Made by a program: the position numbers and the translations under genes. This document shows, piece by piece, positions 2,535 to 22,415 of a DNA stretch of 30,793 nt. How positions within the stretch are numbered: the stretch's first letter is position 1; the number at the start of each line of letters is the position of its first letter. Source of the stretch: a bacterium (GTDB lineage Bacteria; Bacillota; Clostridia; Christensenellales; Aristaeellaceae); contig CAVHAH010000001.1 of assembly GCA_963633785.1 (NCBI GenBank), positions 1 to 30,793 on the forward strand, written 5' to 3'. The notes beneath the pieces were generated by a model that saw nothing but the letters and a program-made list of their open reading frames with translations, did not search any database and was not told where the DNA came from.

Positions 2535-5471
2535 TTACAGCGGCTGAATGGAATCGTACGTCAAACCGATAATGTTCATAACGTCCGAGAAATACCGATT
2601 CATATCGCTTTCGGAAAGATTCAGCGTGGAATCGTATTTCAGGAATTGCAAAAGCCTGGTCGGTCGGGTTTGCGCATAGCTGATTAGAATCTGCAATGCG
2701 CTGTTGTATTTGCTTTCGCTGAAATCCCAACGCTCGAAATGGTCGGGAAGAACGGTCATCAAAAGATTATACCGCTCTTGGAACATGCTCAGGATATTTT
2801 CGGTGGTCATATTGGTGGCGAGCTGTGTTCCGAAATACGTCAGGAATCGGTCTTTGAAGGTATCGTTTTTCATGGCTGCGATGAACAGCGTGTTGTCGGT
2901 GCGCTTGTTGTTGCCCACGCCGCCCGGCGCAAGCCAGCGGGCGATGGAATTCGTGTCCTGCAAAAACGCCCAGTCGATATCATACAGCACCCAGCGCCAT
3001 TTGCCGTCGGCGTTTGCGTTGCGATAGCGCTTCACGTTGCTCGGGTCGGTGTTTCCGGAGAAAATCTCGATGGCCATGTATTCAATGTAATTCTGAATGT
3101 CGATGTTTTCATCCAGCACCTGATACGCCTCATCGGTGTTCGGATCGTGGGTCGTGAGGTAATCGAGCAGTTCCGTGAAGCTCTCGTTTGAACCCTGCCG
3201 CACGATGTCGTTTTTCACAATCAGATCCAGCGAATCCTCCTGACCTTCCCAGCCTTCATGCTGACAAATCAGCGTGGGGCTGATTGCCTCGCGGATATTG
3301 TACTGCCCCCAGTATTCGCCGTTCAGGTAAACGATGCAAACCTCCGTTTCCTGATACAGAACGCTCGTGTCCTTCGCCAATGTAACCAAAACGGAATCGC
3401 GCATTCGGGTTTTGTTTGCGTCGTCGCTGGAATTGCGAATCAGAATCGCGTGCGCCGTGTCGTAATCACGGTTGGAGAAGATGTGCCCCCGAATCAGGGA
3501 ATCGCCGTATTCGCTGCGGGCAATCAGCTTGAAACACTGCTGCGGTTCGCTTCGGCAGGTTTGCCCCTGCTGCGCCATGCCCACTTCCTGCGAGGTAATC
3601 TGATTGCCGCCGCAATCATAGATTTCAACGTGGGCTTCCCGCTCCCATTCCTGATCGTAGTTCGCCACGCTGCCCGTTCCCGCAACCAGAATGCCCGATT
3701 CGTCGCTGAAAAGGTTGTCCGGATCGGACACGATGGAAACGGTATACACGCTGCCCGAACCGTTTTTCGCATCGAAGATATAGGTTTGCGTTTCCATATA
3801 GGAGGGCATACAGCCGTCCTTGTATGCGCGCGCCCGCAGAACCGTCTGTTCGCTGATTTGAATGGGCGAGGTGTACAGGGCAGACGATTCCGAAGGGTCG
3901 GTGTTGTCGGTGGTGTAGTAAATGCGGCAATCGCTCGGTGCGCTGATGGAAACGGTAATCACATCGCCCGTTGTGAACAGTCCGCCCGAAACGGAGAATT
4001 CAGGCGTTTGCGCACGCCCGAGATAGCTTTCCGAACGGTTTTCGCTCCCCGGCGTCATCGTTTCCAGATACAGACAATCCGAGGAATCGCCCAACCGCCC
4101 GTAGCTGATATCCCGATACTGTTGGGGCACATACACGCGGTCCACAATCGTTCCGTCCGATTGCGCCAGCACCACGGAATATTCGCCGCTTGCCGAAAGG
4201 TTGAAATCGGCCACATTGTAAGCGGAGGATGCGAGAAGCTCGGCATTCACTTCCGTTGAAGTATCGCTGCTTGCGAACACGCACATGTATTCGCCCGCCT
4301 GAATCACCGTTCCCGAAGGAAACTGCCATTTGCGGGGACGTGAGGCATTGTCGGAAAGCCCCCAGCCCGAAAGATCAACGGCGCTGTCGGAGGTATTCAC
4401 AATTTCAATCCAGTCCGCCGAAGAAGAGGAGCTGGCAACGATTTCGCTGATGTGAACGGAATAGAGCGTTTCCGCCGAAGCCACCGCATCCGCACCGTAA
4501 ACCGTGTTGGCGGCGTTCGGCGAGGGCGCAAGTGCGGTTGTCCAGCCGGATTCCGTTCGGGAATAGGCCTGATCCGCCTGCAATTCGGGAACGGTAACGC
4601 TTGAAATAACGGTTCCGTCGCTCTTCGTCAGATACAAACTCACGCCCGAGGAGAGCAATTTGAAATTCGCATGAATGTGCCCGTCTTCCACTTCGTCCAA
4701 TCCCGACATATGCACCGTAAGATATTCATCCGGCTGAAGGGTCACATCGGGAAACGCCCAGCGCTTCGGCTTTTGCTCCTGATTGGAAAGATACATTCCG
4801 GAGAGATTCACCGCTTCGTCCGACTTGTTGTGAATCTCGACATAATCGCTGATTTCGCCGTCTTCATCGGGAAAGAAGGTGCGGTTTTTCGTAACGACCT
4901 CCGTGATTTCCAAATCCCCCGACGATTCAACCGCCGATTGCGAGGAAATTGCTTCGGGCGTGTCCGTGATGCTGTTTTGAGCGTTCGGCGTGGCGGTATA
5001 GCTGAGCTGCCACGAGCCGTTTTCATCCAGCGCATAAACCTGATTGTCGCCCAAACCGGGCACCGTTACGCTGTCGATGGTGTTCCCGTTGGCATTCAGC
5101 AGGTAGATTGTCGAGCCGCCCGAGGAGAGCTTAAACGGCGCATGGTATCCGCCCTCTTTCGAACCGTCCGCCGTGATAACCAGAAACCCGCCCGCTTCAA
5201 TCGTGCAGTTCGGGAACACATAGGATTTCTTCGGTTCGGCGGCGCTCATCAGCGCATAACCGTAAAGACCGATGTCCGAATCCGAGGTATTCTCGATTTC
5301 AATCCAATCGGAATCGCCGACCTCCGAATCCGCCATCACTTCGCTGATGCGCAGTCCCGATGCAACGGCCGTTTGCGCATTGTTTTCCAACATCCACGCC
5401 GCCGCACAGGCCACCAACCCGATTATCGCCATTATGATTACCGTTTTCCACGGGAATCTCGATTTTTTCAT
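2535..5471 (-). CDS. CotH-family kinase with N-terminal signal/TM segment, three lamin-tail (LTD) domains and an Fn3-associated/chitobiase-like domain (paralog 2)
   Basis: LTD motifs (LRISEV..DWIEIEN, LEITEV..DYVEIHN, VHISEI..DWIEIVN); IYYTTDNTDP motif; CotH motifs VYLNGEYWGQY, GNTD, KWRWVLYDIDW. Start set to ATG 5471, which follows GGAGG. Confidence 0.85.
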   Translation of the reverse strand: MKKSRFPWKTVIIMAIIGLVACAAAWMLENNAQTAVASGLRISEVMADSEVGDSDWIEIENTSDSDIGLYGYALMSAAEPKKSYVFPNCTIEAGGFLVITADGSKEGGYHAPFKLSSGGSTIYLLNANGNTIDSVTVPGLGDNQVYALDENGSWQLSYTATPNAQNSITDTPEAISSQSAVESSGDLEITEVVTKNRTFFPDEDGEISDYVEIHNKSDEAVNLSGMYLSNQEQKPKRWAFPDVTLQPDEYLTVHMSGLDEVEDGHIHANFKLLSSGVSLYLTKSDGTVISSVTVPELQADQAYSRTESGWTTALAPSPNAANTVYGADAVASAETLYSVHISEIVASSSSSADWIEIVNTSDSAVDLSGWGLSDNASRPRKWQFPSGTVIQAGEYMCVFASSDTSTEVNAELLASSAYNVADFNLSASGEYSVVLAQSDGTIVDRVYVPQQYRDISYGRLGDSSDCLYLETMTPGSENRSESYLGRAQTPEFSVSGGLFTTGDVITVSISAPSDCRIYYTTDNTDPSESSALYTSPIQISEQTVLRARAYKDGCMPSYMETQTYIFDAKNGSGSVYTVSIVSDPDNLFSDESGILVAGTGSVANYDQEWEREAHVEIYDCGGNQITSQEVGMAQQGQTCRSEPQQCFKLIARSEYGDSLIRGHIFSNRDYDTAHAILIRNSSDDANKTRMRDSVLVTLAKDTSVLYQETEVCIVYLNGEYWGQYNIREAISPTLICQHEGWEGQEDSLDLIVKNDIVRQGSNESFTELLDYLTTHDPNTDEAYQVLDENIDIQNYIEYMAIEIFSGNTDPSNVKRYRNANADGKWRWVLYDIDWAFLQDTNSIARWLAPGGVGNNKRTDNTLFIAAMKNDTFKDRFLTYFGTQLATNMTTENILSMFQERYNLLMTVLPDHFERWDFSESKYNSALQILISYAQTRPTRLLQFLKYDSTLNLSESDMNRYFSDVMNIIGLTYDSIQPL

Positions 5472-5502
5472 GATTTGCCTCCGCATTCATTGCAATGACC
5501 TT

Positions 5503-5531
5503 ATTGTAGCGCAAAATGCTTGAATGAGCAA
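5503..5531 (-). promoter_or_regulatory. Putative sigmaA promoter of CotH paralog 2
   Basis: TTGCTC (5531-5526), 17 bp, TACAAT (5508-5503). Confidence 0.55.
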
Positions 5532-5545
5532 TCTCATTCAAGCAT
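5516..5545 (-). terminator. Intrinsic terminator after CotH paralog 1
   Basis: 13-bp perfect inverted repeat ATGCTTGAATGAG/CTCATTCAAGCAT followed by TTT on the minus strand. Confidence 0.7.
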
Positions 5546-5559
5546 CGTTTATTAAATGT

Positions 5560-8448
5560 TTATAAAGAGGGAATCTGATTGTAAGTCAGACCGACTGCCT
5601 CCATTGCGCCGCCGAAATACTTTTCCATATCGCTTTGGGAAAGATTCAGCGCCTGTGAATCCTTCGCGAATTGCAGCAATCGAGTCGGCCTGCTCTGCGC
5701 ATAATCCACCAGTTCGCTCACTTCTTTATTGTATTTCTTCTCGCTCACGCCCCAGCGCTCGAAGTGGTCGGGCAGAATGGTTGATAAAAGATCGTAGCGC
5801 TCCTTGAATCGGGCAACCACCTGTTCGCTCGACAGGTCATTCGCCAGGCGATTCCCGAAATACGTCAGGAAGCGATCGCGGAAGGTGTCGTTTTTCATGC
5901 AGGCGATAAAGAACGTGTTGTCCGCCCTCAATCCGTCGCCCTTGTTGCCCGCCGTGAGCCAGCGCTGGAACGAATTGGTGTCCACGCTGAATCCCCAGTC
6001 CAAATCATACAGAATCCAGCGCCATTTGCCGTCGGCATTCGGGTTGCGATAGCGCTTGATATTCAAGGTATCGGTGTTGCCGGTGTAAATCTGAAGGGTC
6101 ATGAATTCGATGTAGTTTTGAATGTCGATGGCGGAATCGATTCGCTCATAGGCCTCCTGCGTGTTCGGATTGTGATTCGCAAGATAGTCTGTCAAATCCA
6201 GATAGGTTTGATCCGAACCCTGCAAAACGTTCGCCGTGCCCGCAACCAGATCCAGCGCATCTTCATCGCCTTCCCAGCCCTCGTGCAGGCAAATCAATTC
6301 GGTATTCACCGCTTCCCGAAGGTTGTAGTGCCCCCAGTATTCGCCGTTCAGATAAACCACGCAAACCTCTGTTTCCTGATAGAGCACGCTCGTGTTCGAA
6401 GCAAGCGAAGTCAAAACGGAATCACGCATGCGGGTTTTGTTGATGTCGTCGCCCGAATTGCGCAGAAGGAACGCCTTGCAGGTGTCGTATTCACGGTTGG
6501 AAAACAGCTGTCCCGAAAACAGGGCGTCTCCGTATTCCCGCCGTGCAATCAGCTTGAATCCCTTCTGATTTTCGTTGCGCGTGGCGTTTCCCTGCAAGCG
6601 AACGGAACATTCCTGCGAAAGCAGGGAATTGCCCTCGCAATCGAAAACCTGCGCATTCGCCTCGTATTCCCATTCCTGATAATAGTTCGCCACACTGCCC
6701 GAACCTGCCACCAGAATGCCCTTTTCATCGCTGAAGAAATTGTCGGGATCGGATACCAGCGACACCGTATACACCGCTCCCGAACCGTTTTTCACGTCAA
6801 ACAGATAGCTCTGTGCGGTTGCGAACGAGGGCAGGAAATCATCTTGAAAAGCCCGCGCCCGCAAAACGGTCTGCGATGTAATGGTGATGGGGGAGGTGTA
6901 CAGCTGTGAAGACTGCGTGGGCAGGGTGTTGTCGGTGGTATAGTAAATGCGCGCGCCCGAATTCGCCGAAAGCGCAACCGTTATCGTATCGCCCGTTGTG
7001 AACAATCCGCCCGAAACCGAGAATTCGGGCGATTCGGCGCGCCCCGAATACGATTGCGAGATATTCTCCGCCTGCGGCGTCATGGTTTCCAGATACCGCC
7101 CGTCTGCGGAATTTCCCTGCCGACCGTAGCTGATATCCCGATACTGCTGCGCAATAAACAGCCGATCCGTGATTTCGCCGTCGGGCTGTGCGAGCACCAC
7201 GGAGTAACCGCCTTCGGCCGACAGGCAGAAGCCCGTTGAAAGCATCGAATCCGTTTCGCTTTCGCTTGCCAGCACGCACAGGTATTCACCTGCCCCGATG
7301 ACCGTTCCCGAAGGGAATTGCCATTTGCGGGGCCGAGCGGAATTGTCCGAAAGCCCCCAATCGGAGAGATCCACCGAAACGTCCGAGGCGTTTGCGATTT
7401 CAATCCAGTCCACGTTCGAAGAGTTGGTTGCGGAGATTTCGGAAATATAAACGTCGGGCAGAACCGCCTGCGATTCAGAGGAATCGGCGGTGTTTTCGCG
7501 TTGCGGCGTGGGCGCAAGCGTGCTCTTCCAGCCCGATTCGGTAAGCGAATACACCTGATCCGCCTGCATTTCGGGAACGGTCACCGCCGAAGCGATTTCG
7601 CCGCCTTCGTTCGTTAAAAACAACTGCGTGCCCGAGGCTTTCAATTTGAAATTCGCATGAATGTGATCGCCCTCTGTGCGATTCAGCCCCGATAAATGCA
7701 CGCACAGGTATTCATCCGCCGCAAGCTCTACCGACGGAAACGCCCACATCTTCGGGTTTTCACGCTCGTCCGACAGATACCACCCCGCCAGATTCACGCT
7801 TTCGCCGCTCGTGTTGTGAATCTCCGCATAATCATAGAATTCGCCGTTTTCATCCGGGAAATAGGTGCGGTTCTTGGGCGATACCTCCGTGATTTCCAAA
7901 TCCCCCGCAACCACGTCAATCTCCTGCGCGCGCAGTTCATCAACGGAAGCAATTCGGTTTTCTTCGTTCGGCGTGGCGATATAGCTGATTTGCCAAGCGC
8001 CGTCTTTGTCCCGAACGGCGGATTGACCGCTTGCCAATGCGGGAACGGCGGCGCAATCAATCGCCTCGCCCGAGGCATTCAGAAGATACAGCGTATCCTC
8101 GCCCGAAGAAATGCGAAACGGCGCATGAAAATCGCCCTGCGTGCCGTCGGCGGTGACCACCGTGAATCCGCCCGCTTCAAGCGTGTGATTTCCGAATACA
8201 AACGATTTTTGCGGATGATCGGCACTTGTAAGCGCATAACCGTACAGCGAAACGGCTTCGGAGGATGTGTTTTCGATTTCAATCCAATACGCATCCCCTT
8301 CGCCCGAATCCTGCGCAATCTCGCTGATGCGAAGCGGCGATGGCGAATCCTCCCGTGAACGGCTCTCCAGCAGCCACGCCCCCGCACAGGCCATCAGACC
8401 GATGATTGCAATCAAAGCAACCGTTATTCGCAGATTCTGTCTGTTCAT
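5560..8448 (-). CDS. CotH-family kinase with LTD domains (paralog 1)
   Basis: Same architecture as and colinear with 2535..5471 (e.g. KTRMRDSVL, VYLNGEYWGHY, NADGKWRWILYDLDW). Start set to ATG 8448 (MNRQNLR then a hydrophobic segment). Confidence 0.85.
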   Translation of the reverse strand: MNRQNLRITVALIAIIGLMACAGAWLLESRSREDSPSPLRISEIAQDSGEGDAYWIEIENTSSEAVSLYGYALTSADHPQKSFVFGNHTLEAGGFTVVTADGTQGDFHAPFRISSGEDTLYLLNASGEAIDCAAVPALASGQSAVRDKDGAWQISYIATPNEENRIASVDELRAQEIDVVAGDLEITEVSPKNRTYFPDENGEFYDYAEIHNTSGESVNLAGWYLSDERENPKMWAFPSVELAADEYLCVHLSGLNRTEGDHIHANFKLKASGTQLFLTNEGGEIASAVTVPEMQADQVYSLTESGWKSTLAPTPQRENTADSSESQAVLPDVYISEISATNSSNVDWIEIANASDVSVDLSDWGLSDNSARPRKWQFPSGTVIGAGEYLCVLASESETDSMLSTGFCLSAEGGYSVVLAQPDGEITDRLFIAQQYRDISYGRQGNSADGRYLETMTPQAENISQSYSGRAESPEFSVSGGLFTTGDTITVALSANSGARIYYTTDNTLPTQSSQLYTSPITITSQTVLRARAFQDDFLPSFATAQSYLFDVKNGSGAVYTVSLVSDPDNFFSDEKGILVAGSGSVANYYQEWEYEANAQVFDCEGNSLLSQECSVRLQGNATRNENQKGFKLIARREYGDALFSGQLFSNREYDTCKAFLLRNSGDDINKTRMRDSVLTSLASNTSVLYQETEVCVVYLNGEYWGHYNLREAVNTELICLHEGWEGDEDALDLVAGTANVLQGSDQTYLDLTDYLANHNPNTQEAYERIDSAIDIQNYIEFMTLQIYTGNTDTLNIKRYRNPNADGKWRWILYDLDWGFSVDTNSFQRWLTAGNKGDGLRADNTFFIACMKNDTFRDRFLTYFGNRLANDLSSEQVVARFKERYDLLSTILPDHFERWGVSEKKYNKEVSELVDYAQSRPTRLLQFAKDSQALNLSQSDMEKYFGGAMEAVGLTYNQIPSL

Positions 8449-8479
8449 TCCGCCGACCCCCGATAAATCATATATGAAT

Positions 8480-8508
8480 ATTGTATCGCAAAAATCCCGA
8501 GGACGCAA
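8480..8508 (-). promoter_or_regulatory. Putative sigmaA promoter of CotH paralog 1
   Basis: TTGCGT (8508-8503), 17 bp, TACAAT (8485-8480). Confidence 0.55.
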
Positions 8509-8609: not shown

Positions 8610-9299
8610 ATGAAACATGATGAGATATCGCCCCTGAAGCACGCCTTGATGACCCGCCTGAATAACGGCGAAATCAAGAACTGGCTGAAAGAATACGCCA
8701 TGCCCTATAAGGAGCTGATGGCGTATTACCGCTGTGCAATTATGGAGGTCGAAACGAAATTCAATGTGCTCAACGAGGAGCTTTCCCTGCGTTACGACCG
8801 CAACCCGATTGAATCCGTGAAATCACGCCTGAAATCGCCCGAGAGCATCGTGGACAAAGCGGTTCGCAAGAATATACCGCTCACTGTGGAAGGCATCGAG
8901 CAGTATATGCACGATATTGCGGGCCTGCGGGTAATCTGTTCGTTCCCCGGCGACATTTACATGCTGGCGGATGCCCTCTTGCGTCAGGACGATGTGACCC
9001 TTCTGGAGCGCAAGGATTATATTCGCAATCCCAAACCCAACGGCTATCGCAGTTTGCATCTGATTATCGAAACGCCGATTTTCCTGCACAATCAAACCAG
9101 AAAAATGAAGGTGGAAGTGCAGCTGCGCACGATTTCGATGGACTGGTGGGCGAGCTTGGAGCATAAGATTCGCTACAAGAAGGATTTGGAAAACGATGCG
9201 CAGATTGCCAAAGAGCTGTTTGAATGCGCACAAATGGGCGCCGAGCTGGACAATCGCATGGAAGAAATCCACAAACGGGCCAACGCCGACGAAGAATAA
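8610..9299 (+). CDS. Small alarmone synthetase (GTP pyrophosphokinase, RelP/RelQ-like)
   Basis: Synthetase motifs SRLKSPESIVDK, DIAGLRVIC, KDYIRNPKPNGYRSLH, EVQLRTISMDWWASLEHKIRYK; AGGAG RBS before ATG 8610. Confidence 0.92.
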   Translation: MKHDEISPLKHALMTRLNNGEIKNWLKEYAMPYKELMAYYRCAIMEVETKFNVLNEELSLRYDRNPIESVKSRLKSPESIVDKAVRKNIPLTVEGIEQYMHDIAGLRVICSFPGDIYMLADALLRQDDVTLLERKDYIRNPKPNGYRSLHLIIETPIFLHNQTRKMKVEVQLRTISMDWWASLEHKIRYKKDLENDAQIAKELFECAQMGAELDNRMEEIHKRANADEE

Positions 9300-9304
9300 C
9301 CGCC

Positions 9305-9991
9305 ATGGAAACGAAAGCAAGATTGCAAAGGGCATTCACCGCCGTTCTGTTGATCGGCTGGGTTGTGCTGGTGGCATTCGCCATTCAGCAGAAGGATGAA
9401 ATCACCGTAGACAGCATTGTGCAAATGTCTTCGGAAAATTCGCTGCTCACGGCGCTGATGATGCTGTGCCTGTTCGCATTCAAGAGCATCACGGTGGTAT
9501 TGTGGAGTGCGCTTCTGTATGCGGCAAGCGCGATACTCTTCCCGCTGCCGTGGGCGATGCTGGTGAATTTTCTGGGAACGGTGGTAATGATAAGCGTGCC
9601 GTATTGCATCGGATTGCATATCGACGTTCACAGAATTCGCGAAAAGGTGGAGAATCACAAGCACGCTTCCGTAACGAAAATGCTGAACAATCAAAGCACG
9701 GTGATGTTCGCATTTTTCTCCAGAATAATTGCGCTTGTTCCGAGCGATTTGCTGGGCATGTATTGCGGCGCAATGCGAAAGCGATTCCTTGATTTTCTGC
9801 TGGGTTCGATTCTGGGAATGCTTCCGAGCATGCTGGCGTACACGCTCATGGGCGATGCCCTGACCGACCCGACCGGCCCGCAATTCATATGGAGCATGAT
9901 TTCGCAGGTGATTCTGACCGTCGCTTCGCTGATTCTGTATTGGATTCTTCAAAAGAAACACGCGGGCGAAAAGAAAACCGCAGAGGGATAA
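9305..9991 (+). CDS. TVP38/TMEM64 (DedA superfamily, VTT domain) membrane protein
   Basis: Several hydrophobic segments; motifs YAASAILFP and SRIIALVPSDLLGMYCG..FLLGSILGMLP; starts 5 nt after the upstream stop. Confidence 0.8.
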   Translation: METKARLQRAFTAVLLIGWVVLVAFAIQQKDEITVDSIVQMSSENSLLTALMMLCLFAFKSITVVLWSALLYAASAILFPLPWAMLVNFLGTVVMISVPYCIGLHIDVHRIREKVENHKHASVTKMLNNQSTVMFAFFSRIIALVPSDLLGMYCGAMRKRFLDFLLGSILGMLPSMLAYTLMGDALTDPTGPQFIWSMISQVILTVASLILYWILQKKHAGEKKTAEG

Positions 9992-10151
9992 GGCAACCCC
10001 GCACAATTCGGCGGCGACGCTGAATGCGCCTTTTGCGGTATCTGGAAGCTGCAGAAATCTCGATTTACCTCCAGTAAACCTTCGATTCCTGCAATTCCAT
10101 CTACCGCAAAATTCACTATTCATCGTACCACCTCATTTGTGTGGTGTTACC
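9992..10151. repeat. 160-nt long imperfect hairpin element, copy 1
   Basis: Folds back on itself over its whole length; ungapped match (121/160 by manual count) to 17259-17418. Confidence 0.9.
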
Positions 10152-10164
10152 GTTACCAAACAAA

Positions 10165-10195
10165 TCGGAGTGTTTCCGCAAAGGAAGCACTCCGA
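10165..10195. terminator. Bidirectional intrinsic terminator
   Basis: TCGGAGTGTTTCC-gcaaa-GGAAGCACTCCGA with T-rich tails on both strands, between convergent genes. Confidence 0.85.
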
Positions 10196-10209: not shown

Positions 10210-13200
10210 TCAGATTTCCAAAGTTCCCTCGAAGACCTGTTCCGCCGTTCCGTGAAGCGTTACGCCGCTGTCGGAATAGCGAACGGTGAGCGTTCCGCCG
10301 GGCACCTGAACGTCGATGTCCGTATCCCGACGGCACAAGCCGTTTTCAACCGCAGCAACCACTGCGGCGCAAGCGCCCGTTCCGCAGGCTTTGGTTTCAC
10401 CGCTGCCGCGCTCGAAACAGCGCATTCTCAGCGTGGTTGCGTTTACCGCGCGCACGAATTCGGTATTCACCCGTTCGGGGAAGATTTCGGCCGTTTCGAA
10501 TTTCGGCCCCAGCCGATCGAGCTTCAGCGTTTCAACGGAATCCGTGAATACCACGCAATGCGGATTGCCCATGGAAACGAGGTTGATGAAATACATCTGC
10601 CCGGCGATTTTCGCAGGATAGTGCATCGCGCGGTCGGCCTGAATGGTGCAGGGCAGGCTTGCGGGATTCAGATTCGGCTGTCCGATATCCACCGATACCG
10701 AGCTGACCCGACCGGACTGCGTGTAGAGCTGCAAATGGTGAATGCCGCTCGCCGTTTCGATGTTCATTTCCGTTTTCGCAACGATGCCCTTATCGTAGAG
10801 ATACTTGCCCACGCAGCGAATGCAGTTGCCCGCCATTCGCCCTTCGGAACCGTCACGGTTGTACATGCGCATTTTCGCATCCGCCACGGAGGAATTCTCA
10901 ATCAGGGCGATGCCGTCCGCACCCACGCCGTAATGGCTTCTGCACAGCTTCACGCACAGCGATTCGGGATATTCAATCGCATTGTCGCGGTTGTCAATCA
11001 GAATGTAATCGTTGCCGGTAGACTGCATCTTTGAGAATTTCAGGGTCTGACGTTCATGGCGCAGATGCGCAATGTCCACCAGTTCGGTGTTGAGCTGCGT
11101 GTAACGGCTGGCGATGATGTCCGCCAGTGCGTTTGCGGTATCCAGCGATGTCAGGCAGGCGATTCTGTGCAGCACCGCCAGGCGATGCAGGTGAATGTAA
11201 TCCTCCATCGTGGCATCCATAAGCGCACCCGTGTAGATGATATAGTGAATCACGCCGCTTTCAAGCAGATTCTGCGTGGCGTCGTAATCGTGAATGTCGG
11301 GAACGGTATTCACCGCAATGCCCATCGTTGCGAGCACCTGCGCCGTGCCGACCGTCGCATACAGCCGACAGCCCAAATCGTAGAACTTCCGTGCAATCGA
11401 AACGATTTCGGGGTAATCGTATTCATCCACGCTCAGCATAACGCCCGTTTCCTGTCCCGCTTCGGGCGTGCGGAAGCCGGCGCTCACCAAGCCCTTGAAC
11501 AGCGCTTCGGATTTATCCCGACCCAGACCGAGCACTTCGCCCGTGGACTTCATTTCGGGGCTCAAATAGCTGTTTGCGTCCAGCAGCTTTTCAAACGAGA
11601 ATACCGGCACCTTTACCGCACAATACGGCGGCGCCTGATGCAGACCCGTTCCGCAGCCGATTTCACGAAGCGATTCGCCCAGCATCACCCGCGCGGCAAT
11701 GTCCACCATCGCCACGCCCGATACCTTTGAAATATACGGAATCGTGCGCGATGCACGGGGGTTGACCTCGATAACATACAATTCGCCGTCGTAAATCAGA
11801 TACTGAATGTTCACGAGACCCTTCGTGCCCAAAGCCAACGCCAGCTGTGTGGAGCTCTTCACGATGTTCTGAAGCATTCTGTCGGTGATGTTGTACGGCG
11901 GATACACCGCAATGGAGTCGCCCGAATGCACGCCCGCGCGCTCGATATGCTCCATTACGCCGGGAATCAGAACATCCGTGCCGTCGGAAATCACGTCCAC
12001 TTCCAGTTCCGTTCCGGACATATACTTGTCCACCAGAACGGGATTCTCGATGCCGCCTGCGAGAATGCGATTCATGTAGGTTTCAACATCTTTCTTCGCA
12101 TGGGCAATCACCATGTTCTGACCGCCGATAACATAGCTCGGACGCAGCAGCACGGGATAACCCAGCGTTTGCGCCGCATTCAGGGCTTCTTCCATCGTGC
12201 GAACGCCCATGCCCTTCGGACGGCGAATCGAGAATTTCTCCAGCAGCGCATCGAAGCGTTCACGGTCTTCGGCAATGTCGATGCCCTCTGCGGAGGTGCC
12301 CAGAATCGGAACATTCGCGCGGCTCAGCGCACCCGTTAAGCGAATGGCGGTCTGTCCGCCGAACGCAACCACAACGCCGATGGGCTTTTCAACCTCCAGA
12401 ATCCGCATCACGTCTTCATCCGTGAGCGGCTCGAAATACAGCCGGTCGGCGGTATCGTAGTCGGTGGAAACGGTTTCGGGGTTGTTGTTGATGATGACCA
12501 CATCGTATCCCAGCCGCTTGAGCGTCCATACGCAATGCACGGAGGAATAGTCGAATTCAATGCCCTGACCGATGCGAATCGGGCCCGAACCCAGTACGAC
12601 CACCACGGGTTTGCCCGAACGGGGGAACGCACGGGATTCACATTCGGAATCAAAGCTCGAATAGAAGTAAGGCGTTTCGGCGGCGAATTCCGCACCGCAG
12701 GTATCCACCATTTTGAATACGCTGTGGCATTCGGGCAGCGATTCCGCTCCCGAAAGACGCTTGATTGCGGCGTCGGGATAGCCCAGCTTCTTGCCTTTCA
12801 GATAATTCTCCTCGGTAAGACCGTTTGCGATTTCGGCTTCGTAATCGGCGAGCTTTTGCAATTTGGCGATGAACCACTTGTCGATTTTCGTGATTGCGTG
12901 AATTTCATCCACCGTCACGCCGCTCTTCAGCGCTTCAAACACGGTAAACAGCCTGTGGTCGTCTGCGATTTTCAGCCGTTCACGAATGGGCGCGGAGCTG
13001 TTCGGCGTGCGGTTGAGCGTATCCATGCCGATTTCCGCACCTCGAACGGCTTTCATCAAAGCCATTTCGAATGTGGGCGCAATGGACATCACTTCGCCCG
13101 TCGCCTTCATCTGCGTGCCCAAACTGCGGCTGGCTCCGGCGAACTTGTCAAACGGCCATTTCGGGAACTTGACCACCACATAGTCGAGCGTCGGCTCAAA

Positions 13201-14235
13201 GCAGGCGCAGGTCTTGCCCGTGATTTCGTTTTTGATTTCATCCAGCGTATAGCCCAAAGCGATGCGGGTGGTGACCTTTGCAATCGGATAGCCCGTGGCC
13301 TTGCTCGCCAATGCCGACGAACGGGACACGCGCGGATTCACCTCGATAACCGCATATTCGAAGCTGTCGGGATTCAGGGCGAACTGGCAGTTGCAGCCGC
13401 CGACAATGCCCAGCGCCGAAATGATATTCAGCGATGCGCTTCGAAGCATCTGATATTCCTTGTCCGAAAGCGTGAGTGCGGGCGCAACCACAATGGAATC
13501 GCCCGTGTGAATGCCCACGGGATCGAGATTCTCCATCGAGCAAACGGCAATCACGTTGCCCACGGAATCGCGCATCACCTCGAATTCGATTTCCTTCCAG
13601 CCCGCCACGGACTTTTCAATCAGAACCTGCGTAATCGGCGAAGCGTCCAGACCGGTCTGCGCAATCAGGCGCAATTCCTCTTCATCCGCCGCAGAACCGC
13701 CGCCTGCGCCGCCCAATGTGAATGCGGGGCGAACGATTACGGGGTAACCGATTTTCGAAGCGATTTCCAGCGCCTGATTCACGGTGTTGGCGATGCCCGA
13801 GGGAATCACGGGTTCGCCGATTTCGGTCATGGCGTCTTTGAACAGCTGTCTGTCCTCCGCCTTGTCAATCGCCTCGGCATTTGCGCCGATCAGGCGAACG
13901 TTGTGTTCCTGCAAAAAGCCGTCTTTGGAAAGCTGCATCGCAAGCGTCAGACCCGTCTGACCGCCAAGACCCGCCAGAAGGCTGTCCGGCTTTTCGTGCA
14001 GAATAATGCGCTTGAGCGTTTCAACGGTCAGGGGCTCCAAATAAATTTCATCCGCAAGCGCCTTGTCGGTCATGATGGTTGCGGGGTTTGAATTCACCAA
14101 AACCACATTCACGCCCGCATCCTTCAGAATTCGGCACGCCTGCGCACCGGCATAATCGAATTCGGCGGCCTGACCGATTACGATAGGACCGGAACCGATC
14201 ATCAAAACCTTGTGAATGGACGGATTCAGCGGCAT
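10210..14235 (-). CDS. carB: Carbamoyl-phosphate synthase large subunit fused to a C-terminal diaminopimelate-epimerase (DapF) domain
   Basis: GSGPIVIGQAAEFDY, duplicated ATP-grasp domains (EVNPRVSRSS, EVNPRASRT), MGS-like domain; last ~277 aa are DapF-like (FSKMQSTGNDY, GVGADG, SMGNPH, FERGSGETKACGTGA). Confidence 0.95.
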   Translation of the reverse strand: MPLNPSIHKVLMIGSGPIVIGQAAEFDYAGAQACRILKDAGVNVVLVNSNPATIMTDKALADEIYLEPLTVETLKRIILHEKPDSLLAGLGGQTGLTLAMQLSKDGFLQEHNVRLIGANAEAIDKAEDRQLFKDAMTEIGEPVIPSGIANTVNQALEIASKIGYPVIVRPAFTLGGAGGGSAADEEELRLIAQTGLDASPITQVLIEKSVAGWKEIEFEVMRDSVGNVIAVCSMENLDPVGIHTGDSIVVAPALTLSDKEYQMLRSASLNIISALGIVGGCNCQFALNPDSFEYAVIEVNPRVSRSSALASKATGYPIAKVTTRIALGYTLDEIKNEITGKTCACFEPTLDYVVVKFPKWPFDKFAGASRSLGTQMKATGEVMSIAPTFEMALMKAVRGAEIGMDTLNRTPNSSAPIRERLKIADDHRLFTVFEALKSGVTVDEIHAITKIDKWFIAKLQKLADYEAEIANGLTEENYLKGKKLGYPDAAIKRLSGAESLPECHSVFKMVDTCGAEFAAETPYFYSSFDSECESRAFPRSGKPVVVVLGSGPIRIGQGIEFDYSSVHCVWTLKRLGYDVVIINNNPETVSTDYDTADRLYFEPLTDEDVMRILEVEKPIGVVVAFGGQTAIRLTGALSRANVPILGTSAEGIDIAEDRERFDALLEKFSIRRPKGMGVRTMEEALNAAQTLGYPVLLRPSYVIGGQNMVIAHAKKDVETYMNRILAGGIENPVLVDKYMSGTELEVDVISDGTDVLIPGVMEHIERAGVHSGDSIAVYPPYNITDRMLQNIVKSSTQLALALGTKGLVNIQYLIYDGELYVIEVNPRASRTIPYISKVSGVAMVDIAARVMLGESLREIGCGTGLHQAPPYCAVKVPVFSFEKLLDANSYLSPEMKSTGEVLGLGRDKSEALFKGLVSAGFRTPEAGQETGVMLSVDEYDYPEIVSIARKFYDLGCRLYATVGTAQVLATMGIAVNTVPDIHDYDATQNLLESGVIHYIIYTGALMDATMEDYIHLHRLAVLHRIACLTSLDTANALADIIASRYTQLNTELVDIAHLRHERQTLKFSKMQSTGNDYILIDNRDNAIEYPESLCVKLCRSHYGVGADGIALIENSSVADAKMRMYNRDGSEGRMAGNCIRCVGKYLYDKGIVAKTEMNIETASGIHHLQLYTQSGRVSSVSVDIGQPNLNPASLPCTIQADRAMHYPAKIAGQMYFINLVSMGNPHCVVFTDSVETLKLDRLGPKFETAEIFPERVNTEFVRAVNATTLRMRCFERGSGETKACGTGACAAVVAAVENGLCRRDTDIDVQVPGGTLTVRYSDSGVTLHGTAEQVFEGTLEI

Positions 14236-16475: not shown

Positions 16476-16508
16476 ATGCACAATTCAAACGGCAGGGAGG
16501 AAATGAAA

Positions 16509-17258
16509 ATGAAAAAGACATTGATTTGTGCGGTTCTGGCTTTGATGCTTTTGTGTTCAACGGCATTTGCGGACACGCTGACCATGGGTTCGAGCATCGA
16601 CTTTGCGCCCTATGAGTATTACGACGACGAGACCGGCGACATCGTGGGCATCGATGTTGAGATTGCGCAGGCGGTTTGCGATGCGCTGGGCTACGAGCTG
16701 GAAATCACGGATATGCAGTTCGATTCGATTATTGCGGCGGTGGTTCAGAACAAAGTGGATTTCGGCATGTCCGGATTCACCATCACCGAGGAGCGCAAGC
16801 AGAGCGTGAATTTCTCCACGCCCTACACCACAACGGCGCAGAAAATTATCGTTCCCGAAGACAGCTCGATTACATCGGTTGACGATCTGTTCAACACGGA
16901 AAACAGCTTCTCCATCGCCGTGCAGCAGGGCACGACGGGCGACCTCTACATCACGGATGATGTGGAAGCCAACGGTCTGAAGCATGATATTCAGCGCTTC
17001 AACAAGGCGCCCGATGCCGTGGTTGCGCTGCTGGCGAACAAGGCGGACTGCATCATTATCGACGGCGAGGTTGCCGAATCCTTCGTGGCGGCGAATGAAG
17101 GCCTGAAGGTTCTGGAATCCGCATACGCCTATGAAGAATACGCCATCTGCTTCTCCAAGGACAGCGCCATCTACGAGGCATTCAACACCGAACTGGAAAA
17201 GCTGATTGCCGACGGCACGGTGCAGAGCATTATCGATAAATACATCACGGAAGACTAA
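16509..17258 (+). CDS. Polar amino-acid ABC transporter substrate-binding protein (family 3)
   Basis: Signal peptide ending AFA; motifs DFAPYEY, GIDVEIA, SGFTITEERKQSVNFSTPY, VQQGTTG; GGAGG RBS. Confidence 0.92.
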   Translation: MKKTLICAVLALMLLCSTAFADTLTMGSSIDFAPYEYYDDETGDIVGIDVEIAQAVCDALGYELEITDMQFDSIIAAVVQNKVDFGMSGFTITEERKQSVNFSTPYTTTAQKIIVPEDSSITSVDDLFNTENSFSIAVQQGTTGDLYITDDVEANGLKHDIQRFNKAPDAVVALLANKADCIIIDGEVAESFVAANEGLKVLESAYAYEEYAICFSKDSAIYEAFNTELEKLIADGTVQSIIDKYITED

Positions 17259-17418
17259 GGACACACTGATTAATTCGGCGGCGAATCTGAGCGTGCCTTT
17301 CACGGCATCTGCTTCTTGCAAAAATCTCGATTTACCTCCAGTAAACCTTCGATTTCCGCAATCGCATATGCCGCAAAATTCACTGCTCAGCTTACCACCT
17401 CATTTAATCAGCGTATCC
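17259..17418. repeat. 160-nt long imperfect hairpin element, copy 2
   Basis: Same length and fold as 9992-10151; shares the 33-nt identical core AAATCTCGATTTACCTCCAGTAAACCTTCGATT. Confidence 0.9.
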
Positions 17419-17435
17419 CTAAATCCAAAAAACCG

Positions 17436-20410: not shown

Positions 20411-20528
20411 GCATTCCGACAGATATTCGCATTTTAATGGAAGGAAGGGTGGAAAAAAGCGATTGAATCCGCTAGAATATAACCGAGGGATTCACCGTGA
20501 ATCCGAACGCCGCAGAGGAGTGAACGGT

Positions 20529-22415
20529 ATGGAAATTCAGTTTGAATGTTTGATTCCCAAGCAAAAAGAGCGCACCTATTTTACGATTCCCTTCGAGGTT
20601 TCGGAAAATGTGGAGCGCATGGATATCTATTATGAATATCCTCGGCATATTCAATATGAAAAAAACGGTGTTCGCTATGACGAAGAGGCGAATATCATCG
20701 ATTTGGGCGTGATTGCCGCAGACGGTGAATATATCGGCGCTTCCGGCTCGAATCGCAATCATATATTCATTTCGGCCTATGAAAGCTCGCAGGGCTATGC
20801 GGCGGTGCCCATTGTTCCGGGCAAGTGGGAAATTGTCGTGGGTGCGTATAAAATCGCCCCGCAGGGCGTTACGGTGAAATACCGCGTTGTATTCGAAATG
20901 AAGCGGCTTCGCCTTTTTTGCGGCGATACGCATATACACACAAAGGGTTCGGACGGTGCGCTGGACAGCGAAGAAGTTGTGGAGCTTTGCCGCAAACAGC
21001 ATCTGGATTATGCATTCATTACCAATCACAACAATTATTCGGAAAACGATTTTCTTCCCCGACCGGCGGATATCACGGTTCTGCCCGGCACGGAATGGAC
21101 GCATTACAAGGGGCATTCGGGCTTTCTGGGCGTGAAACGGCCGTATAAGAATCCGTTTTGCGTGAATTCGGAACAGCAGGCCGCCGCCATTATCGAGGAG
21201 GCCCGTTTCAACGGTGCGATGATTGTATTCAACCATCCCTTCGACAGCCCCGATTGCGGCTGGAAATGGGGCTTTGACATCGCTCCGTTCGATGCGGTGG
21301 AAGTCTGGAACAGGGCGTGGATGCATGAAAACAAGAACACCCGCTGCCTGTCCTGGTGGCATGAACAGCTTTGCGGCGGCAGGAAAATCCCCGTAATCGG
21401 CGGAAGCGATTTTCATCGCATAGGTCTGAACAGCCTGCCGGGCATTCCGTGCACCTGCGTTTATGCCATGTCACGAAGCCCCGAGGATATTCTGTCGGCC
21501 CTGCGAAGCGGTCACACCTATATCAAAATGACGCCCGAAATGCCAAACGCCGAAATAACGGAAACGGAATGCCTTTTCGGGGATACGGTTTGCGAAGGCA
21601 CGGCGATAACGGTAAAATTCACCCGCCTTCGCAGCGGCGATAAAATCCGAACCATCACGGATAAAAATCAAACGGAAACCGTCACGCCCGAAAACGGACG
21701 GGAAATGCAGCTTTGTTTTCAAGAGAACGGCGTGAAATTCGTTCGCTATGAAATTCTGCGCAAAGTCGACGACTGCGCCCCCGAAGTGCGCATTCTGCTG
21801 ACCAATCCGATTTATTTTGAAAAGCGCATCCCGAAGGGAGAAAAATTCACGGCGAATGCAGACGGGAAACCGAGGTGCTGCTGGGCCAATCCGAAAAACG
21901 AGCGATACGTTCGCTATCACGACCTGGAATGGGGCGTTCCCGTTCATGATGATTCCAAGCTCTTTGAAATGCTGATTCTCGAATGCTTTCAGGCGGGATT
22001 ATCGTGGGAATGCGTGCTGAATAAACGGGAAGGCTTTCGCGCGGCGTTTGACGGTTTTGATTTGCAAAAGGTCTGCGCCTATGACGAAACCAAGCTGGAA
22101 TCCCTCGGAAACGACCCGTCCATTATCCGAAACCGTTTGAAAATACAGGCCGCCGTGACCAATGCGCAGGTGTTTCGGGCGATTCAAAAGGAATGCGGCA
22201 GTTTCTCGGATTATCTGTGGCATTGGACGAACAATCGGGTTGTGTTTGAAAACACGAAAACAAGCTCTCCGCTTTCCGATGAAATATCAAAGGATTTAAA
22301 AAAACGCGGCATGAAATTCGTGGGGACCACCGTGATTTACGCCTATCTGCAAGCCGTCGGAATCATCAATTCACATGAAGACGGATGTTTCCTGGCAAAG
22401 GAGGTCAAACGATGA
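20529..22415 (+). CDS. PHP (CehA/McbA-like) metallohydrolase fused in frame to DNA-3-methyladenine glycosylase I (Tag)
   Basis: PHP motifs GDTHIHT..SDG, TNHN, GTEWT..GH, NHP, GGSDFH; from 21861 Tag motifs RCCW..YHDLEWG, LECFQAGLSW, IIRNRLKI, GMKFVG, HxxxC; GAGGAG RBS. Confidence 0.85.
   Translation: MEIQFECLIPKQKERTYFTIPFEVSENVERMDIYYEYPRHIQYEKNGVRYDEEANIIDLGVIAADGEYIGASGSNRNHIFISAYESSQGYAAVPIVPGKWEIVVGAYKIAPQGVTVKYRVVFEMKRLRLFCGDTHIHTKGSDGALDSEEVVELCRKQHLDYAFITNHNNYSENDFLPRPADITVLPGTEWTHYKGHSGFLGVKRPYKNPFCVNSEQQAAAIIEEARFNGAMIVFNHPFDSPDCGWKWGFDIAPFDAVEVWNRAWMHENKNTRCLSWWHEQLCGGRKIPVIGGSDFHRIGLNSLPGIPCTCVYAMSRSPEDILSALRSGHTYIKMTPEMPNAEITETECLFGDTVCEGTAITVKFTRLRSGDKIRTITDKNQTETVTPENGREMQLCFQENGVKFVRYEILRKVDDCAPEVRILLTNPIYFEKRIPKGEKFTANADGKPRCCWANPKNERYVRYHDLEWGVPVHDDSKLFEMLILECFQAGLSWECVLNKREGFRAAFDGFDLQKVCAYDETKLESLGNDPSIIRNRLKIQAAVTNAQVFRAIQKECGSFSDYLWHWTNNRVVFENTKTSSPLSDEISKDLKKRGMKFVGTTVIYAYLQAVGIINSHEDGCFLAKEVKR

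Follow-up and report, generated by a model that had tools for sequence, protein, structure and literature searches.

What is a 160-nt hairpin that occurs twice in one stretch of DNA, in two different spellings, and why should its fold be kept? The question is raised by the window considered here (the whole 30,793-nt stretch of DNA that was analysed), in which an initial annotation had inferred a multicopy structured RNA or single-stranded DNA element, selected for its fold and assignable to no named family. Its measurements are confirmed: the two copies, A and B, occupy 9992-10151 and 17259-17418, are each 160 nt long and align without gaps at 121/160 identity; all nine of the double changes that it listed are Watson-Crick pairs in copy A and in copy B; the 33-nt apical segment has the same letters in both; and on the + strand each copy folds into a single rod (z = -7.20 and -7.35, a value equalled by 0/200 shuffles). 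One rod per copy therefore stands, but the conserved fold sits on the minus strand rather than on the + strand, with predicted RNA energies of -85.7 (A) and -87.5 kcal/mol (B) on the minus strand versus -59.2 and -52.2 kcal/mol on the other, a gap of 26 and 35 kcal/mol. The features of the window that bear on the two copies are the following.

9224..9991, + strand: gene for a VTT-domain membrane protein; copy A begins directly past its stop codon.
9992..10151, - strand: copy A, subfamily a, a putative 160-bp non-autonomous IS5-type element with its stable rod on the minus strand.
9992..10006, + strand: type-a left terminal inverted repeat of copy A, 14/15 against one end of L450:1501-2632, a complete IS5 element.
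10020..10123, - strand: conserved rod core of copy A, recognised by core models R1 and R2, with covariation, and common to families with other ends.
10055..10087, strand not given: apical 33-nt segment, invariant between A and B.
10137..10151, - strand: right terminal inverted repeat of copy A, 13/15 against the same L450 IS5 end.
10165..10195, + strand: terminator-like hairpin 3' of copy A (pattern match only).
16476..17258, + strand: gene for a solute-binding protein (SBP_bac_3); copy B begins directly past its stop codon.
17255..17258, + strand: left CTAA target duplication of copy B, containing the stop codon of the upstream gene.
17259..17418, - strand: copy B, subfamily b, a putative 160-bp non-autonomous IS5-type element.
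17259..17273, + strand: type-b left terminal inverted repeat of copy B, 13/15 against the left end of the IS5 element L074:1257-2492.
17287..17390, - strand: conserved rod core of copy B, a core model match.
17404..17418, - strand: right terminal inverted repeat of copy B, 13/15 against both ends of the IS5 element L071:737-1974.
17419..17422, + strand: right CTAA target duplication of copy B.

The ends give the first part of the answer. The initial annotation had set the copies apart from ordinary MITEs because the latter conserve their termini, whereas here the termini seemed among the most diverged parts. The divergence is real, with 15 of the 39 A/B differences falling in the terminal 15 bp, but within each subfamily the termini are conserved, match IS5 elements and are accompanied by 4-bp duplications; the argument against a MITE fails because A and B represent two separate subfamilies, each with its own kind of IS5 end. 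Both a and b have GG...CC ends with 15-bp terminal inverted repeats conserved inside the subfamily, and in contrast to the 14/15 and 13/15 agreement of the left ends of A and B with L450 and L074, cross-matches reach 6-11/15. The existence of two kinds of IS5 end thus accounts for the four double changes in the termini. The split between a and b partners is not sharp, the left end of A scoring 11/15 against one L074 end, and a/b hybrids occur.

The partner elements, which we take to belong to the "IS5 subgroup" with its 4-bp targets, were found in relatives and on one viral contig. L450 (1132 bp, TTAA duplication, 310 bits to NF033581) and L074 (1236 bp, CTAA duplication, 299 bits) are joined by L071 (1238 bp, without duplication) and by the truncated, end-matching L076, and the NF033581 scores of the four span 221-310 bits against a curated cut-off of 140. 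Because no PF01609, PF13751, PF01797 or PF13586 transposase was found in the 80%-complete assembly of the element's own genome, the partner transposase is known from relatives and the viral contig only; PF13751 was likewise not found in five high-copy relatives.

Target duplications were counted over 50 full-length copies, 10 from the own genome and 40 from relatives, truncated and edge copies and four aberrant loci having been dropped beforehand. An exact 4-bp duplication flanks 32 of them, compared with a mean of 4.4 and a maximum of 12 for shuffled flanks, and no length other than k=4 gives a signal in this set; nine of the remaining 18 match at 3/4 positions. The target is AT-rich and often overlaps a TAA or TAG stop codon. 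Copy A itself, with flanks ATAA/GTTA that agree at 2/4 positions, has no target duplication. As for the middle of the element, the core has no similarity to the interior of the partner IS elements. Judged from sequence comparison, the family is best read as non-autonomous IS5-family MITEs that carry a structured cargo, a reading to which we give a probability of roughly 0.7. An IS5 DDE transposase acting in trans would bind both ends, cut the target with a 4-nt stagger and insert the element, and copies A and B would carry the ends of two IS5 lineages. What survives of the proposed fold-selected RNA or single-stranded DNA element is that it is multicopy and that its fold is conserved; the window copies themselves are elements of MITE type.

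The multicopy character was borne out by the genome-wide search that the initial annotation had called for: BLAST and nhmmer (E<=1e-3) found 77 family loci in the assembly (2.07 Mb, 80% complete), of which 27 lie where a contig ends; a (copy A-like) and b (copy B-like) are the two subfamilies. Length is tightly held, at 159-161 in 47 of the 50 full copies, and symmetric internal deletions are frequent, down to 27-48 bp. Such minimal derivatives (G000:C154:124-150, C169:55-81 and C16:7297-7344) keep both ends, some with duplications. Two hybrids, G000:C40:5435-5539 and C10:13455-13501, combine one a-type end with one b-type end, and the former retains a 4-bp duplication. At L140, L165 and L171 the b-type right arm is replaced or interrupted by a different GC-rich hairpin. 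An insert of about 79 nt, consisting of three adjacent hairpins, occurs in the apical loop of family a and in an arm of families b and c (family c is described below), at G000:C57:6422-6500, C48, C15, C3, C8, C233:1024-1102, C7 and C123:3571-3651; the insert sequences differ, the three-hairpin plan is constant and an obvious duplication is absent. This module might be another mobile unit, one with these rods as its target.

Among 40 relatives queried with copy A, six have matches, nearly all of 160 nt and at 71-76% identity, and 34 have none; three of the six have 20 scored matches with this query. The 33-nt apex is found exactly at 67 loci of the genome collection, mostly in uncultured Clostridia or Christensenellales. 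Against plasmids, copy A and the metagenome locus L281 had no match, and L104 gave two short chance matches. Five unannotated gut phage records (MT837850.1, MT838197.1, MT835684.1, MT836030.1 and MT839783.1) carry full or partial copy A-like DNA, which might be a way for the element to pass from host to host or might be contamination with bacterial DNA.

In four congeners, no element follows the best homologues of the gene upstream of copy B; these are distant empty sites only, because their downstream context differs too. Composite transposons between close copies were considered and set aside, the intervening genes being ordinary-looking by eye. Elsewhere in the window, two tandem paralogues of about 980 aa (2535-8508, - strand) are encoded by DNA that is about 72% identical, the first having lamin-tail, Fn3-associated and CotH kinase domains. 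A 1341-aa ORF (10210-14235, - strand) presumably resembles a carbamoyl-phosphate synthase large subunit with a diaminopimelate epimerase-like C-terminal extension. The 650-aa ORF at 20463-22415 (+ strand) has a methyladenine glycosylase domain at residues 474-643 and an N-terminal part with no Pfam match at 1e-3. An adhesin-like ORF rich in repeats (2-2479, + strand) has DUF5649, below threshold, as its only Pfam result, and by eye its last ~170 residues resemble a fragment of a mutator-type transposase.

If the ends are those of IS5 elements, what is the middle? It is a rod of about 100-130 nt on one strand, with purine-rich internal loops, that is not derived from the IS, and it also occurs between quite different ends. 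Family c is exactly 160 bp long and has ends unrelated to those of a and b, a TA duplication, and an inner register in common with a and b; it has matches in 31 of 150 genomes at the level of the family. There are mosaics in both directions, b ends with a c apex and c ends with a b apex. At G000:C133:2177-2336 a family-c element lies in hairpin three of the insert that an a-type copy carries, and C133 and C57 form a filled/empty pair for family c with a TA duplication. The search for a family c partner transposase found none, the nearest candidate being L523, where a PF13586 fragment lies between similar ends flanked by TA, and six matches to the end of family c on viral contigs proved not to be transposon ends.

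Further afield, core model R1, built from Clostridia only, has matches in 20/149 genomes at the level of the order, 16/149 at that of the class and 6/149 at that of the phylum; the broader model R2 has matches in 11/149. Some of the distant matches carry a or b ends and 4-bp duplications, some have different ends and some lack clear ends; where the ends are clear, they measure 157-174 bp. Of 166 flanking ORFs listed around them, 56 were selected and checked: these genes are unrelated, with one resolvase domain among them, no transposase or reverse transcriptase at E<=1e-15 and no conserved neighbour. The loop motifs keep their collinear order in families whose ends are unrelated and in distant taxa.

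Covariation was examined over more copies than the original two, and it holds inside the core as well as at the ends. In the whole element, 30 of 61 pairs are doubly changed among 17 minus-strand copies, a count that 0/500 shuffles reach and that collapses in slid registers; since the sequences are related, however, such shuffle controls and p-values overstate the case, and we treat covariation as support and attach no probability to it. The two inner helices contribute 12 and 7 doubly changed pairs in the same 17 copies, and across end types (the R1 alignment of 25 sequences) 24 of the 34 core pairs are doubly changed. The minus strand is the more stable in 50/50 copies as RNA and in 48/50 as DNA. 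When 21 representatives were aligned to themselves in a strand-neutral manner, the stable strand had 187 A-G mismatches versus 9 C-T, and 113 G-T versus 38 A-C, which assigns the fold to a single strand.

Such a core is probably not confined to the Clostridial elements. In 2009, Aklujkar listed for Geobacter metallireducens 24 intergenic "predicted short RNA elements", Gmet_R1001-R1024 (Additional file 4 of PMC2700814); the Gmet_R1 legend there gives no fold model, ends or mobility. A pattern drawn from the Gmet_R1 alignment found at least 124 metagenome loci, which are Geobacter-type by sequence pattern and not by taxon, and the Clostridia-only model R1, run on 60 of 80 motif-selected metagenome loci, gave 24 matches at E<1e-3. 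One locus, L281, is by eye two positions off Gmet_R1017 and scores E = 3.4e-7 with R1. Moreover, 66 of 72 Geobacter-type loci are more stable on the strand that is also favoured in the Clostridial core. The central palindrome of Gmet_R1 is absent from the window copies, which have a different apex, and was seen in 2 of the 229 loci compared, one being the core-bearing L104. The common IS-like end is absent in 40 of 58 scored Geobacter-type loci, whose own ends vary yet still pair, while the other 18 sit within another IS-like end. At L254, L264, L267, L279 and L282, Geobacter-type cores are enclosed by or adjoin a further IS-like inverted repeat, and there is often a second, nested end. A relationship between the Clostridial core and the Gmet_R1 repeats is, in our opinion, very likely.

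A more distant resemblance leads to ERIC. Thirteen E. coli K-12 ERIC copies were mapped, and the models R1 and R2 were both built without ERIC. On the whole E. coli K-12 chromosome each model gave a single match, to the same ERIC copy, at E = 0.014 (R1) and 3.4e-5 (R2), with two candidates past the filters. The aceF-lpd location of this chromosome is one that we take to hold an ERIC copy. Its sequence was taken as ERIC by eye, against the consensus given in Table 1a of PMC2759123. When run unfiltered on the 13 ERIC loci, R2 had as its top three matches ERICs on the stable strand (E = 3.8e-7, 1.3e-3 and 0.01), with two further weak scores and eight loci without any (5/13 at E<=10); R1 unfiltered gave one, at E = 0.037. 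Profiles of the arms beat structure-keeping shuffles (<=2/300) in 3 of 5 ERIC copies with either training set, and reached <=13/300 in 5/5 with the broad set, a result favoured because the five copies tested were those that the model had scored. In the covariance-model alignments, the arm motifs GAUUU, CAAGG, AACGC and AAAGA of ERIC and the core are collinear; the CAAGG/CGCAG loop is kept in family c and lost from the window-type a/b copies. The comparison of the ERIC apex with the core apex stayed mostly at chance level (shuffles beaten in 1/5 and 0/5 copies), and a sequence-only HMM of the core was not significant on the 13 ERIC loci (best E = 0.13). The own ends of five E. coli ERIC copies vary but still pair. 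On balance we lean towards homology of the core with ERIC, with convergence of purine-rich rods as the alternative.

What, then, might the core be for? We put slightly less than even odds on its being an ancient selfish module that owes its retention to a single-strand fold aiding spread or persistence, and that different IS ends have captured repeatedly; the fold might, for example, snap back to bring the two ends together, or bind a host factor. Instead, the core could act as RNA on host transcripts, in the manner proposed for ERIC in Yersinia (mRNA decay or termination), the IS ends merely dispersing it. Such a role would suit the intergenic position of the copies (by the gene calls of this analysis, an inside-gene position was assigned to 1 of 93 a/b/c loci), many of which lie directly behind stop codons: for a-type elements, 20/44 weak-strand ends adjoin a stop versus 7/35 strong-strand ends, with no orientation bias for b or c. 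The G-U and tandem G-A mismatches are also RNA-like, the energy gap between the strands is larger as RNA than as DNA, and ERIC is reported to have orientation-dependent effects on mRNA (PMC2229807). We nevertheless consider this role rather unlikely, as the stable strand is mostly antisense to its neighbours: by our gene calls it is on the mRNA in 40 of 119 gene relations and the weaker strand is on the coding strand in the other 79 (about 2:1), and at 64 of 93 loci the weaker strand agrees with the contig's majority strand. Moreover, the insertion sites are species-specific, with unrelated neighbours, and a promoter pattern search of copies A and B revealed no promoter-like site in either. 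The apex as an outward promoter or Shine-Dalgarno sequence was a separate candidate, rejected for want of a promoter match and for its varying loop. As for a stand-alone multicopy ncRNA gene, 6S-like or other, the rod shape, the size and the strong covariation would be in keeping, but the absence of any Rfam match, of a large central bubble and of a promoter-like site, together with the transposon ends, the duplications and the lack of the element in 34/40 relatives, leaves very little room for it.

Another alternative, also unlikely, is that the core is mobile in itself, a single-stranded DNA hairpin moved by a structure-recognising enzyme as REPINs are by RAYTs, with the IS ends being later additions. 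The 40/58 Geobacter-type loci without the common IS-like end and the five E. coli ERIC copies, all with varying ends that still pair, argue for it, and a strict strand asymmetry would suit a single-strand substrate; the fixed IS5 ends and 4-bp duplications of the own-genome copies argue against it, as do the lack of a conserved neighbour gene and the distribution of Y1 transposases, which are absent from the own genome and matched in 1/5 high-copy genomes (these assemblies being incomplete). Finally, the fold could be without function, these being plain MITEs with an inherited palindromic middle whose paired changes come from template switching. Hairpin pairing can be created and kept in that way (PMC8794818), symmetric internal deletions are many, and rod-forming MITEs are common (PMC2229807, PMC10969869). 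Template switching should, we infer, erase mismatches equally on both strands, whereas here a single strand retains purine-purine and G-T mismatches; the collinear loop motifs across unrelated ends and distant taxa and the near-constant length of 47/50 copies also speak against it, making a functionless fold quite improbable.

Returning to the captured selfish module, ERIC, Gmet_R1 and the Clostridial elements may tentatively be seen as one old superfamily of single-strand rods that crosses phyla and has fixed loop motifs, the rod being a mobility enhancer or enzyme substrate captured repeatedly by unrelated IS ends; we think this plausible but would bet somewhat against it. As merely one more MITE family in uncultured gut Clostridia the elements would be of minor importance, and the interest lies in their middle. 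The interiors of MITEs are usually seen as family-specific filler; here one core is found under at least three end types, at a fixed 160 bp and class-wide, and it appears to join two long-known orphans, the 2009 Geobacter repeats and ERIC. If this is true, the IS5-bounded copies would be the first tractable system in which to study the spread of ERIC-like repeats and the reason for which their fold is kept. Since the a and b ends have a matching transposase, what the core does is directly testable by swap and mutation.

How does the family compare with systems already described? No Rfam family matches the window copies or the family at the 21 loci scanned; across the window and these loci Rfam gave nothing beyond tRNA, a single unrelated enterobacterial sRNA and miRNA or snoRNA scores at chance level. 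The claim of an undescribed family is thus upheld as regards Rfam and qualified by the resemblance of the core to the 2009 Geobacter repeats and, more distantly, to ERIC. In the literature searched, which was thin on subscription journals and lay outside the primary papers on ERIC and Chunjie, this family is undescribed, and there is neither a report of one core under several IS ends nor a link of ERIC to Clostridial or Geobacter repeats. Integron attC sites have a core consensus, with which we compared the element ends; they misfit it, and the elements carry duplications, so the attC reading was rejected.

The closest known relatives by the ends are the IS5 family (NF033581) and its MITE derivatives, which have the same GG...CC ends, 15-bp repeats agreeing at 13-14/15 positions and a 4-bp AT-rich duplication; unlike IS5 elements, the family has no transposase, and its interior is dissimilar and common to families with other ends. 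Rods with compensatory changes are known from other MITEs (PMC10969869, PMC2267715), among them bcr1 of the Bacillus cereus group, a mobile repeat of about 155 bp with direct-repeat flanks (PMC3184786); by its description, bcr1 is set apart by a cruciform double hairpin and 5-bp repeats. REPINs, which depend on RAYTs, are similar as dispersed intergenic hairpins of comparable size, but here no Y1 transposase is found nearby or in the incomplete genome assembly, and the ends and duplications are of DDE type. Gmet_R1 shares its outer motifs and apical hairpin plan with the Clostridial core; it differs in its length of ~112-115 nt, its extra inner segment and its many relatives without IS ends, the Clostridial a and b elements having 160 bp and IS5 ends. 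ERIC (also IRU or RU-1) is, like the core, a long imperfect rod with one stable strand, purine-rich loops and an intergenic position. Table 1 of PMC2229807 gives it as a 127-bp element with TA ends and a 7-bp repeat, and the same 2007 review describes its mobilisation by a transposase as hypothesised, without experimental support. The a and b elements depart from ERIC in their GG...CC IS5 ends, 4-bp duplication and 160-bp length, while their sister family c duplicates TA.
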